This document shows, piece by piece, positions 3,114 through 50,809 of a stretch of 64,000 bases of DNA; positions within the stretch are counted from its first letter, which is position 1; each line of letters opens with the position of its first letter. The DNA is taken from assembly GCF_044324875.1 (NCBI RefSeq), contig NZ_CP172185.1; one strand, 5' to 3'. A program made the position numbers and the translations under genes. The notes under the pieces were generated by a model. It did no database searches, was not told the DNA's origin, and worked only from the letters and a program-made list of their open reading frames with translations. This DNA is from Escherichia coli. Lineage in GTDB: Bacteria > Pseudomonadota > Gammaproteobacteria > Enterobacterales > Enterobacteriaceae.

Positions 3114-3396
3114 GTGATGGCTTCTGATAAAGATAAATTTATAGCCCCTAGTATGCGCGACCAGGTGCTTTATTCACAACTGATGACATTGCAATAGTTC
3201 TATAACGTAAACATTAACATGCTTAAAAACTACGCAATTTATTGATTAATTAAGAAATTTAAAGAAAAAAGATAGTTAACAAAAGCGGATGATTATTGAG
3301 GATTGAGCACGTTTTCCTTAATGTCATTTATACCGGGATCTAAACTAAAATTGGCGGCCGCGCATTCCCGGCGCGGGGTTATACGGAGATATCATC

Positions 3397-3606
3397 ATGG
3401 GCAAATTAGGTGAAAACGTTCCGCTTCTTATCGATAAAGCCGTAGATTTCATGGCATCGAGCCAGGCGTTCCGGGAGTATCTGAAAAAACTACCTCCCCG
3501 TAACGCGATTCCGTCCGGAATACCTGATGAAAGCGTGCCGTTATATCTACAACGTCTGGAGTATTATCGTCGGCTTTATCGGCCGAAGCAGGTAGAGGGG
3601 CAGTAA
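3397..3606 (+). CDS. yibT: YibT small protein
   Basis: 69-aa [17 protein letters not shown]..., convergent with mtlR. Confidence 0.65.
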
Positions 3607-3617
3607 GCAGGCGTTGC

Positions 3618-4205
3618 TTACTTTTGGAAGGCTTTTTTTAAGCTGATTTTGGAAATCAGCTCTGTCAGTGAAAGGACCATTGTTGATCGCACAGCCTGTT
3701 GGTAACGCTGAATTTGCATTGCATACAAACTGGAGTCTGCAGGTTCAAACTGTGGCGGCGGTGGTAACGCCGCCACGCAATGCAGTTCACCAAAGGGTCC
3801 AAGGATTTCGTCGTCGGTAAACGCGTACTCGTTGCCGTCGTGATTTAGCTCTTCACGCAATGCCATCAGTAGCTCCGCATCTTCGTATTCCTGGCGGTTA
3901 ATGACGCCCAACCCGTAAATGAGTTTTAAACGCACAGAAAGATCGCCCAGCGGACCGTCGCCGTCGAGTAACGGTTCTACAGCATACTTCACCGCGTAAT
4001 CGTCTTTGCGGAATACCTGAAGCACCAGAAGATTTACCGCCTCGGTCAAAAGCTCGACGGCGGTGATCAGAAAGCTTCGCACGGTTTTGCCAGCATTCAG
4101 ACGCTCAAGCACACGGTTTTCAAAGGCCTGGGTTTGTTCCATTGTTGCCTGCATATCTGACAATCTGTTATTCGGGCGCAGGGTATCCTGCGCCTGGTCC
4201 ACCAT
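3618..4205 (-). CDS. mtlR: Mannitol operon repressor MtlR
   Basis: 195-aa ORF immediately downstream of mtlD on the same strand. Confidence 0.9.
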   Translation of the reverse strand: MVDQAQDTLRPNNRLSDMQATMEQTQAFENRVLERLNAGKTVRSFLITAVELLTEAVNLLVLQVFRKDDYAVKYAVEPLLDGDGPLGDLSVRLKLIYGLGVINRQEYEDAELLMALREELNHDGNEYAFTDDEILGPFGELHCVAALPPPPQFEPADSSLYAMQIQRYQQAVRSTMVLSLTELISKISLKKAFQK

Positions 4206-47325: not shown

Positions 47326-48780
47326 ATGTATATCGGGATAGATCTTGGCACCTCGGGCGTAAAAGTTATTTTGCTCAACGAGCAGGGTGAGGTGGTTGCT
47401 TCGCAAACGGAAAAGCTGACCGTTTCGCGCCCGCATCCACTCTGGTCGGAACAAGACCCGGAACAGTGGTGGCAGGCAACTGATCGCGCAATGAAAGCCC
47501 TGGGCGATCAGCATTCTCTGCAGGACGTTAAAGCATTGGGTATTGCCGGCCAGATGCACGGTGCAACCTTACTGGATGCCCAGCAACGGTTATTACGCCC
47601 TGCCATTTTGTGGAACGACGGGCGCTGTGCGCAAGAGTGCGCTTTGCTGGAAGCGCGAGTTCCGCAATCGCGGGTGATTACCGGTAACCTGATGATGCCC
47701 GGATTTACTGCGCCTAAATTGCTATGGGTTCAGCGGCATGAGCCGGAGATATTCCGTCAAATCGACAAAGTATTGTTACCGAAAGATTACTTGCGTCTGC
47801 GTATGACGGGGGAGTTTGCCAGCGATATGTCTGACGCAGCTGGCACCATGTGGCTGGATGTCGCAAAGCGTGACTGGAGTGACGACATGCTGCAGGCTTG
47901 CCACTTATCTCGTGACCAGATGCCCGCATTATACGAAGGCAGCGAAATTACTGGTGCTTTGCTACCTGAAGTTGCGAAAGCGTGGGGTATGGCGGCGGTG
48001 CCAGTTGTCGCAGGCGGTGGTGATAATGCAGCTGGTGCGGTTGGTGTAGGAATGGTTGATGCTAATCAGGCAATGTTATCGCTGGGGACGTCGGGAGTCT
48101 ATTTTGCTGTCAGCGAAGGGTTCTTAAGCAAGCCAGAAAGCGCCGTACACAGCTTTTGCCATGCGCTACCGCAGCGTTGGCATTTAATGTCTGTGATGCT
48201 GAGTGCAGCGTCGTGTCTGGATTGGGCTGCGAAATTAACGGGCCTGAACAATGTCCCAGCTTTAATCGCGGCTGCTCAACAGGCTGATGAAAGTGCCGAT
48301 CCAGTTTGGTTTCTGCCTTATCTTTCCGGCGAGCGTACACCACACAATAATCCCCAGGCGAAGGGGGTTTTCTTTGGTTTGACTCATCAACATGGCCCCA
48401 ATGAACTGGCGCGAGCAGTGCTGGAAGGCGTGGGTTATGCGCTGGCAGATGGCATGGATGTCGTGCATGCCTGCGGCATTAAACCGCAAAGTGTTACGTT
48501 GATTGGTGGCGGGGCGCGTAGTGAGTACTGGCGTCAGATGCTGGCGGATATCAGCGGTCAGCAACTCGATTACCGCACGGGGGGGGATGTGGGGCCAGCA
48601 CTGGGCGCAGCAAGGCTGGCGCAGATTGCGGCGAATCCAGAGAAATCGCTCATTGAGTTGTTGCCACAACTGCCGTTAGAACAGTCGCATTTACCAGATG
48701 CGCAGCGTTATGCCGCTTATCAGCCACGACGTGAAACGTTCCGTCGCCTCTATCAGCAACTTCTGCCATTAATGGCGTAA
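47326..48780 (+). CDS. xylB: Xylulokinase
   Basis: 484-aa ORF MYIGIDLGTSGVKVILL, FGGY kinase family. Confidence 0.95.
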   Translation: MYIGIDLGTSGVKVILLNEQGEVVASQTEKLTVSRPHPLWSEQDPEQWWQATDRAMKALGDQHSLQDVKALGIAGQMHGATLLDAQQRLLRPAILWNDGRCAQECALLEARVPQSRVITGNLMMPGFTAPKLLWVQRHEPEIFRQIDKVLLPKDYLRLRMTGEFASDMSDAAGTMWLDVAKRDWSDDMLQACHLSRDQMPALYEGSEITGALLPEVAKAWGMAAVPVVAGGGDNAAGAVGVGMVDANQAMLSLGTSGVYFAVSEGFLSKPESAVHSFCHALPQRWHLMSVMLSAASCLDWAAKLTGLNNVPALIAAAQQADESADPVWFLPYLSGERTPHNNPQAKGVFFGLTHQHGPNELARAVLEGVGYALADGMDVVHACGIKPQSVTLIGGGARSEYWRQMLADISGQQLDYRTGGDVGPALGAARLAQIAANPEKSLIELLPQLPLEQSHLPDAQRYAAYQPRRETFRRLYQQLLPLMA

Positions 48781-48947
48781 ACGTTATCCCCTGCCTGACC
48801 GGGTGGGGATAATTCACATCTATATATCTCAGTAATTAATTAATATTTAGTATGAATTTATTCTGAAAATCATTTGTTAATGGCATTTTTCAGTTTTGTC
48901 TTTCGTTGGTTACTCGTAATGTATCGCTGGTAGATATGGAGATCGTT

Positions 48948-49289
48948 ATGAAAACCTCAAAAACTGTGGCAAAACTATTATTTGTTGTCGGGGCGCTGGT
49001 TTATCTGCTTGGGCTATGGATCTCATGCCCATTGTTAAGTGGAAAAGGCTATTTTCTTGGCGTGTTAATGACAGCAACTTTTGGTAACTATGCATATCTT
49101 CGCGCAGAAAAACTCGGGCAACTGGATAATTTTTTTATCCATATCTGCCAGTTAGTCGCGTTAATCACTATCGGTCTCTTGTTTATCGGTGTTTTAAACG
49201 CACCTATCAATGCTTATGAAATGGTGATCTACCCTATCGCCTTTTTTGTCTGCTTGTTTGGTCAAATGCGTTTGTTTCGCCCGGCATGA
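48948..49289 (+). CDS. yiaB: Inner-membrane protein YiaB
   Basis: 113 aa from ATG 48948 (MKTSKTVAKLLFVVGALVYLLGLW). Confidence 0.8.
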   Translation: MKTSKTVAKLLFVVGALVYLLGLWISCPLLSGKGYFLGVLMTATFGNYAYLRAEKLGQLDNFFIHICQLVALITIGLLFIGVLNAPINAYEMVIYPIAFFVCLFGQMRLFRPA

Positions 49290-49334
49290 GCAACATAAAG
49301 CTCTTACACATTCAGGAATGAAAGGAATGCTGTG

Positions 49335-49772
49335 ATGGACAACAAAATATCAACCTATTCTCCGGCATTCAGTATTGTGTCATGGATAGCTCTCGTTGGT
49401 GGTATCGTTACCTATCTGTTAGGGCTATGGAATGCAGAGATGCAGTTAAATGAAAAAGGATATTATTTTGCTGTACTGGTATTAGGACTGTTTTCTGCGG
49501 CGTCTTATCAAAAGACCGTTCGGGACAAGTATGAAGGCATACCGACCACCTCCATTTATTATATGACCTGCCTGACTGTCTTTATTATCTCTGTTGCGTT
49601 ACTGATGGTAGGTCTGTGGAATGCGACGTTATTACTCAGCGAGAAAGGTTTTTATGGACTGGCTTTCTTCTTAAGCTTGTTTGGTGCAGTAGCGGTGCAG
49701 AAGAATATTCGTGATGCCGGAATAAACCCACCAAAAGAAACACAGGTTACCCAGGAAGAATACAGCGAATAA
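49335..49772 (+). CDS. yiaA: Inner-membrane protein YiaA (YiaB paralog)
   Basis: 145 aa from ATG 49335; shares the repeated LLGLWN...EKGYY motif with YiaB. Confidence 0.8.
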
Positions 49773-49813
49773 TTCACATAAGCCCGGTCAGTCCAATGTG
49801 ACCGGGCTTTTAT

Positions 49814-50809
49814 TTAACTCACTAGTCTGTTTCTGTCGATTCGTTGTACCAGCATAGAAAGTAATAAACTCGCTGCCAACGTCGCGCAAAAGATCCAAAT
49901 AATATCGAGTATTGGCCAGTTTTTAAGCTCAATCCCCCGGGTGCGCAGTGCATGGATAATCAAGGCGTGGAACCCGTATATGCCCAACGAATGGCGGGAG
50001 ATTAAGCCAAGTCCGCGAACGGTACGCGTATCAAGCGTGTTTTTAACCAGAGTCAATAGCGTGATTGCGCAGATAAAAACCATCGGCCCACAGTAAAGAT
50101 ACCAGGTATCGGCAAAATTTCCGCGCCACTGCAATTCATATAATGTCCCGCGAGAGATAATAAAAACCCCCGTCGCAAACAGTGCGGCGCTCCCCCACGA
50201 CAGTGCTTTATGCTGTGTGTCCATCATCCCTATAGCGCGGCCCAACATGCCATAAAGGATGTAGTAAAAAGTATCGCCATTGATATATAAGTTAATTGGC
50301 AGCCATTCAAAACCGTCAATTTTCTGCGGCACTGTGTTTGGGTTAGCGATAATACCAATCACCACCATTAGCACCAGCAACATTTTTCCGCCGACGTTCT
50401 TCACCTGAATCAGCGGTGAAACCAGATAAATCACCGCAATCGCGAAGAAAAACCATAAGTGGTAAAACACTGGCTTTTGCAGCAGGTTTTTCAGCGCTAA
50501 CTCCACATTGATGGAGGTAAACAGCGCAATGTAGAGCAGTGCGATTGCGCTATAAAAAAGCAGACATAAGCCGATACGCAAGAAATGGCGCGGCTGGGCG
50601 CTGCGTTCGCCAAAAAAGGGATAGCCGGAAATCATGAAAAATAGCGGCACGCTGACACGAGAGGCAGAATTCAGAACATTGGCGATATCCCATGTGACGG
50701 GGCTAACACTATGAGCATTGGTCACATACCAGGTAGTGGTGTGAATCATCACCACCATTAAACACGCTATCCCTCGCAGGTTATCAATCCAGTAAATTTT
50801 GGGCTGCAT
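49814..50809 (-). CDS. wecH: Acyltransferase-3 family O-acetyltransferase
   Basis: 331-aa polytopic [27 protein letters not shown]. Confidence 0.85.

Follow-up and report, generated by a model that had tools for sequence, protein, structure and literature searches.

The YiaAB family (TC 9.B.44) has been listed among the families in which an element of two transmembrane segments (TMSs) was duplicated to give proteins with four TMSs (PMC3061005), and the corresponding Pfam entry is PF05360 (yiaA/B two helix domain; TCDB 9.B.44). The two genes considered here, yiaB and yiaA of Escherichia coli, the family to which they belong, and the internal duplication from two to four transmembrane (TM) helices are all already described, and the locus itself therefore has little discovery value. 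What is gained by the present analysis is a corrected history, in which most probably a hairpin duplication came first, a gene duplication followed later, and the second unit of YiaB was eroded after that.

The literature mentions these genes only indirectly, and no functional study of yiaA or yiaB was found in it; many of the matches to 'yiaA' are typographical errors for yjaA or unrelated strings. The two genes are handled as separate transcription units (PMC10127797). A mutant Lrp activates both of them, Salmonella yiaB has a SoxS ChIP site nearby, yiaB is named in lists from overexpression and silver-sensitivity screens, and a YiaAB protein is up 26-fold in Variovorax biofilm. According to one paper (PMC10519446), yiaA is controlled by sigma-32, and for this reason YiaA is possibly stress-induced or part of a membrane-stress response.

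The stretch of DNA that was analysed, here called the window, is 64 kb long. The original prediction placed the gene pair at 48948-49772, and these limits are exact, 48948 being the A of the yiaB ATG and 49772 the final base of the yiaA stop. The yiaB coding sequence (48948-49289, + strand, 342 nt, 113 amino acids) was identified from its open reading frame (ORF) and from the RefSeq annotation of the orthologous locus, and yiaA (49335-49772, + strand, 438 nt, 145 amino acids) from its ORF and RefSeq annotation. Four TM helices are predicted for each product; YiaB is the fast-evolving paralogue and YiaA the conserved one. The pair occupies a conserved slot bounded upstream by xylB (xylulokinase, 47326-48780, + strand) and downstream by the convergent neighbour wecH (O-acetyltransferase, 49814-50809, - strand), within the gene order xylA-xylB-yiaB-yiaA-wecH-ysaB-glyQ.

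The 45-bp spacer between the two genes (49290-49334) contains, as read from the sequence, a Shine-Dalgarno-like AAAGGAA ahead of the yiaA ATG. Between yiaA and wecH there is a GC-rich hairpin followed by a T-run, which resembles an intrinsic terminator (49780-49809, + strand; an 11-bp stem with seven GC pairs, then TTATTT). An inverted repeat, ATCCCC...GGGGAT, is located just past the xylB stop at 48786-48810, with no T-run behind it, and a very AT-rich stretch of 130 bp lies between this repeat and yiaB. In a scan upstream of the two genes, the best match to the sigma-32 consensus scored 10/14, which equals the background of the window, and a sigma-70 scan of the yiaB-yiaA region found no promoter on the + strand.

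A 1.2-kb query covering the yiaB-yiaA region found a match in 5,425 of 5,426 complete E. coli genomes, at 95-99% nucleotide identity, and the RefSeq labels at the matched E. coli locus are 'inner membrane protein YiaB' and 'inner membrane protein YiaA'. Each protein scores best against its own NCBIfam model: YiaB gives 169.5 bits with NF008492 (cutoff 130) compared to 45.5 bits with the YiaA model, while YiaA gives 197.8 bits with NF008482 (cutoff 150) compared to 75.9 bits with the YiaB model. PF05360, whose gathering cutoff is 26.6 bits, matches YiaA with 135.5 bits and YiaB with 42.5 bits. The region consists of the known and already annotated E. coli/Shigella genes yiaB and yiaA, which encode small inner-membrane proteins of the YiaAB family.

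The two ORFs had been noted to share a repeated motif, LLGLWN-x-EKGYY. The repeated pattern is indeed present in both, but the literal string is exact only in unit 1 of yiaA, and yiaB has I in place of N and G in place of E. Translation of the whole window in six frames gives three occurrences of the motif in its more general form, GLW-x8-KG[YF][YF], all within yiaB and yiaA. The yiaB copy is GLWISCPLLSGKGYF (49011-49055), and the two yiaA copies, of 15 residues each, are at 49422-49466 in unit 1 and at 49611-49655 in unit 2. The motif forms part of a longer unit, whose consensus order is TM - GLWNA-x4-L-x-EKG[YF]Y - TM - QKxxRD. In YiaA the first unit comprises residues 12-64 (49368-49526, + strand), with a GLW-type motif and QKTVRD, and the second comprises residues 75-127 (49557-49715, + strand), with a GLW-type motif and QKNIRD; as separate half-proteins they match Pfam with 76.9 bits (E = 1.4e-21) and 69.7 bits (E = 2.5e-19), respectively. 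Unit 1 of YiaB, residues 6-51 (48963-49100, + strand), carries the yiaB copy of the motif and gives 38.2 bits (E = 1.6e-9) as a half-protein. Unit 2 of YiaB, residues ~63-105 (49134-49262, + strand), is degenerate, with its motif eroded to GVLNAPINAYEMVIY, and on its own gives 14.7 bits (E = 0.037).

BLASTP aligns residues 7-105 of YiaB with residues 15-117 of YiaA at 34% identity (E = 3e-13), and the alignment is colinear across both units. The significance of the similarity was assessed by comparing Smith-Waterman scores with those of 2000 composition-preserving shuffles, and profile-profile comparisons were made with hhalign, using orthologue alignments of each unit. The shuffle z-score is 18 for full-length YiaA against YiaB and 16 for the first half of YiaA against its second half, with 0/2000 shuffles reaching the observed score. 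For the individual units (A and B denoting YiaA and YiaB, and 1 and 2 the unit), z is 10.4 for A1-B1, 6.9 for B1-A2, 12.9 for A2-B2, 0.5 for A1-B2 and -0.2 for B1-B2. The hhalign scores are 77 for B1-A1 (E = 1e-16), 50 for B1-A2, 65 for B2-A2 (E = 4e-14), 40 for B2-A1 and 22 for B1-B2 (probability 34%), and unit 1 of YiaA matches unit 2 with E = 6e-27. Short residual DNA repeats pair B1 with A1 and B2 with A2; their offsets, 411 and 423 nt, are colinear. The claim that yiaB and yiaA are adjacent paralogues is thus upheld, by the BLASTP match, the full-length z-score and the Pfam domain common to both. The two halves of YiaA likewise bear out the proposed internal duplication of a two-helix unit, and the check suggested at the outset, an alignment of the yiaA halves against yiaB, gave significant matches for A1-B1 and A2-B2.

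Both units are present in every aligned homologue, from Enterobacterales, Betaproteobacteria, Xanthomonas, Bacteroidota, Neobacillus, Chloroflexi, Acidobacteria and Campylobacteraceae. The hairpin duplication is ancient and took place before the whole-gene duplication, because all the homologues examined have two units, apart from four singleton collapsed variants of 79-90 amino acids with two TM segments. In these single-hairpin variants of YiaA (P0289 from K. pneumoniae, of 84 amino acids, together with P0368, P0360 and P0381), TM1 of unit 1 leads directly into the loop and TM4 of unit 2, with the junction at GLWNA. They are probably either deletions produced by recombination between the repeats (the DNA repeat at 49417-49435 and 49606-49624) or assembly errors. 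The existence of stable single-hairpin members of the family was considered and rejected, all four forms inspected being singletons of this kind.

The distribution of the YiaAB family is patchy, with 524 clusters at 50% identity. The YiaA homologues of Bacteroidota, Neobacillus, Chloroflexi and Acidobacteria are 55-66% identical to E. coli YiaA, a range that is biased upward by being taken from the best 80 of 543 loci. Examples from distant phyla within loci L020-L089 are Hymenobacter (L021), Neobacillus (L063) and Chloroflexi (L039). Such identity across phyla is unusually high for a small membrane protein, and points to strong constraint or to horizontal spread, or to the two together. At a locus unrelated to the xylB-wecH slot (L018, 3995-4450), 'Citrobacter sp. 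Cu233' has a second YiaA, which is Hafnia/Providencia-like, is 65% identical to E. coli YiaA, and is possibly a horizontally acquired extra copy. It is found ~1.2 kb downstream of a 930-residue ORF resembling, on inspection by eye, an invasin/intimin-type adhesin, with a 236-residue ORF between them. Across 76 loci there is no conserved gene-neighbourhood partner of the YiaA family, the sole recurrent neighbour being a Crp/Fnr-type cNMP-binding regulator that is upstream in 15 Bacteroidota loci. This regulator has ~187 residues, matches Pfam PF00027, and is on the same strand as the yiaA homologue, at a median of 82 bp upstream of it (for example at 3338-3901 in locus L052).

The homologous loci were surveyed using one genome per species, the best 80 of 543 loci, and a profile from 12 sequences. 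All ORFs in 89 fetched loci, with ~4 kb on either side of each homologue (~8 kb), were scanned with the HMM. A yiaB-like gene paired with yiaA was found in Escherichia, Salmonella, Citrobacter, K. pneumoniae and Superficieibacter only, and always in the xylB-wecH slot; with this sampling of a single genome for each species and of the best 80 loci, the taxonomic range of the pair is approximate. Phytobacter, Yersinia, Serratia, Rouxiella and Cedecea have a single family gene within the ~8-kb locus, and 70 further loci have one family gene each in ~8 kb, 69 of these being outside Enterobacterales and the exception being 'Citrobacter sp. Cu233'. Single copy here means single at the locus and not genome-wide, because ~4 kb was fetched on each side. 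In Phytobacter, yiaA is alone in the xylB-wecH slot, and two unrelated genes occupy the position of yiaB. In Phytobacter massiliensis these lie between xylB and yiaA (L014, 2438-3891) and are ORFs of 179 and 305 residues, which by eye resemble an isochorismatase-type hydrolase and a GlxA/AraC-type regulator. The single yiaA genes of Rouxiella, Cedecea, Yersinia and Serratia sit at other loci.

A search with YiaB as query returned 139 proteins, of which all those bearing a species or genus name are from Escherichia, Shigella, Citrobacter or Klebsiella. In neighbour-joining (NJ) trees the YiaB clade is monophyletic in 495/500 bootstraps. A clade uniting YiaB with the YiaA of Enterobacteriaceae is present in the point NJ tree, yet it occurs in 113/500 bootstraps, and the attachment of YiaB is poorly resolved. 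In the manner of tandem duplicates, the two genes are adjacent, both on the + strand, separated by 45 bp, and significantly paralogous over their full length. The most parsimonious explanation is a whole-gene tandem duplication in the core Enterobacteriaceae, later than the hairpin duplication. Because of the low bootstrap count at this node, the tandem duplication rests on parsimony (adjacency, shared strand and distribution) and not on phylogeny. The local duplication history that was originally suggested therefore agrees with the adjacency and common strand of the genes and with the restriction of the pair to core Enterobacteriaceae.

The two copies have diverged unevenly. Over the same genera the mean corrected distance is 0.81 within YiaB compared to 0.15 within YiaA, and the comparison of E. 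coli with Salmonella gives a dN of 0.35 for yiaB and 0.11 for yiaA. YiaB has evolved approximately 3-5 times faster than YiaA. Values of dN/dS are 0.05-0.24 for yiaB, 0.046-0.075 for yiaA (in pairs with both dN and dS above zero) and 0.034-0.086 for xylB; the yiaB range comes from six pairs with estimable dS, one of which, Salmonella-Citrobacter at 0.119, depends on a dS of 2.5 that is close to saturation. The QKxxRD motifs that end each unit of YiaA have been lost from YiaB. The W-N...EKG motif of the second YiaB unit has been lost in Escherichia, and this loss is lineage-specific. The signature of the first YiaB unit, CPL[LF]SGKGYFLGVL, is strictly conserved in the YiaB clade except in Superficieibacter, and the yiaB ORF is intact, at 112-126 amino acids, across Escherichia, Salmonella, Citrobacter, Klebsiella and Superficieibacter.

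In C. freundii (L002, 5001-5354) and K. oxytoca (L003, 5001-5381), yiaA is cleanly missing from the locus and yiaB has been kept, with its stop overlapping or abutting the wecH stop. Both genes have been kept by other Citrobacter (L007, L011 and L012) and by K. pneumoniae (L009). These cases look like two independent losses of yiaA at the locus. The retention of yiaB at a locus from which yiaA has been deleted argues that YiaB may have no need of an adjacent, co-located YiaA partner.

Other explanations have to be weighed against this history. YiaA and YiaB consist almost wholly of hydrophobic helices, and low-complexity TM segments often align spuriously, which raises the question of whether the similarity is a by-product of composition and not homology. 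This has practically no probability: no shuffle attained the observed scores (z of 10-18), and the similarity is therefore not explained by hydrophobic composition. In addition, the motif is position-specific, with its copies at colinear sites, and the curated Pfam and NCBIfam models are matched above their cutoffs. A different origin was put forward in the original prediction, namely that the unit occurs once in yiaB and that YiaA arose from it by doubling, either through internal duplication or by fusion of two yiaB-like units. The YiaB protein of the window does give this impression, in that the conserved motif is visible in it only once, its C-terminal half is under the Pfam cutoff, and its two units do not match each other significantly. 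The C-terminal halves of other YiaB orthologues give 17-21 bits with Pfam, and that of E. fergusonii gives no match. However, the second-unit motif of C. freundii YiaB is nearly intact (VGVWNAPLSPLEKGLY), and its C-terminal half alone gives 30.8 bits (E = 3.5e-7), above the gathering threshold. From this result, together with the colinear alignment to YiaA over two units, the strong B2-A2 match by both shuffling and hhalign, and the four predicted helices, it is concluded that YiaB is a two-unit, four-helix protein with an eroded second unit. Its second PF05360 unit, like the two tandem units of YiaA, is thus present, and is recognisable through unit 2 of YiaA and through less-diverged orthologues. 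Furthermore, two-unit proteins are found in phyla that have no YiaB, so that the doubling occurred long before yiaB. The single-unit origin is refuted by these results, and we regard any version of it as extremely unlikely.

The place of yiaB beside yiaA could also have come about by chance, if yiaB had been acquired horizontally from a divergent member of the family. The long branch of YiaB and its poorly supported attachment would fit this, as would the observation that for some YiaB sequences the nearest neighbour by raw distance is a non-enterobacterial YiaA, and the family as a whole has signs of wide horizontal spread, in its identity across phyla and in the Hafnia-like copy of Citrobacter sp. 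Cu233. Nevertheless, the name-bearing matches include no YiaB-like donor lineage outside Enterobacteriaceae, in five genera yiaB and yiaA share a strand and stand directly side by side in a conserved chromosomal slot, and the mean distance of YiaB is lowest to the YiaA of Enterobacteriaceae (1.51, compared to 1.58 and 2.00 for the other groups). An acquisition of this type is considered unlikely. Even less likely is that yiaB is a decaying and non-functional relic, in effect a pseudogene, as might be supposed from its fast evolution, its loss of the signature polar motifs, and the many truncated variants seen in E. coli assemblies. Truncated variants occur for yiaA too, the unit-1 signature and the ORF have been preserved as described above, and yiaB is kept where yiaA has been deleted. 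Five of the six pairs with estimable dS give the range of 0.05-0.24, apart from the pair with near-saturated dS. Judged from these dN/dS values, yiaB is a maintained gene, under purifying selection with relaxed or altered constraint, and no pseudogene.

We therefore favour, with high confidence, an ancient hairpin duplication, then a tandem gene duplication in the xylB-wecH slot, and finally uneven divergence in which unit 2 of YiaB was eroded. In this sequence of events, duplication of a two-TM hairpin produced the four-TM protein long ago, as is demonstrated by the two-unit homologues. Most parsimoniously, the four-TM gene would then have been doubled in tandem in the ancestor of Escherichia, Salmonella, Citrobacter, Klebsiella and Superficieibacter. 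Thereafter, as the distances and motif comparisons demonstrate, YiaA remained highly conserved, while YiaB changed quickly under purifying selection, losing QKxxRD and, in Escherichia, the W-N...EKG motif of unit 2.

Structures predicted by AlphaFold2 (AF2) have four helices in both proteins, at residues 10-33, 38-66, 73-96 and 101-129 in YiaA (pLDDT 92.8) and at residues 5-26, 30-55, 61-84 and 89-110 in YiaB (pLDDT 88.7). No informative structural relative was found for these four-helix bundles. The hydrophobic segments are uncharged, except for K9 at the N-terminal edge of the first segment of YiaB. Two pairs of near-invariant polar motifs mark the hairpins, W-N...E-K-G at one end and Q-K-x-x-R-D at the other. 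K and R are more numerous in the central loop and in the C-terminal tail, which fits an N-in/C-in arrangement and points to a cytoplasmic location of the central loop and of both termini. A global study of E. coli inner-membrane topology is reportedly associated with such a placement in the inner membrane. From the charge counts and published topology data, the W-N/E-K-G motifs are predicted to be at the periplasmic ends of the helices and the Q-K-x-x-R-D motifs at the cytoplasmic ends.

With low confidence, YiaA may be pictured as a small protein embedded in the inner membrane, probably oligomeric, whose function would depend on the W-N/E-K-G and Q-K-x-x-R-D pairs as interface motifs. YiaB would then be a sub- or neo-functionalised derivative in which the interface motifs of YiaA have fallen out of use. 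A more specific version, which we offer as a tentative and somewhat doubtful suggestion, is that YiaB is a neo-functionalised paralogue that has shed these motifs (both QKxxRD and the second W-N...EKG) and acts without YiaA, and that YiaA is unusually constrained and horizontally mobile and has an important role, possibly related to sigma-32 or membrane stress. The reading of neo-functionalisation derives from the retention of yiaB in C. freundii and K. oxytoca after the clean deletion of yiaA. The locus illustrates, cleanly and on a small scale, how two copies diverge asymmetrically after tandem duplication. What YiaA does, as a very widely conserved small membrane protein, is a question for the whole family, and is not specific to this locus.

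Compared with YiaA and YiaB of E. coli K-12, the genes of the window are the same genes at the same locus, and there is no difference of substance. The window YiaA is 100% identical to that of strain E300010 and also to a Shigella dysenteriae protein. The window YiaB is 99% identical to that of strain E300010, differs by a few residues from common E. coli variants, and is 96% identical to the best cluster representative. With respect to Pfam PF05360 and TCDB 9.B.44, both proteins match the domain, YiaA with two full copies, whereas the second copy in Escherichia YiaB is below threshold. The duplicated c-subunits of F-type ATPases, which are named beside YiaAB (PMC3061005), have followed a like route, in which a hairpin was doubled to give a four-helix bundle with a pseudo-two-fold repeat.
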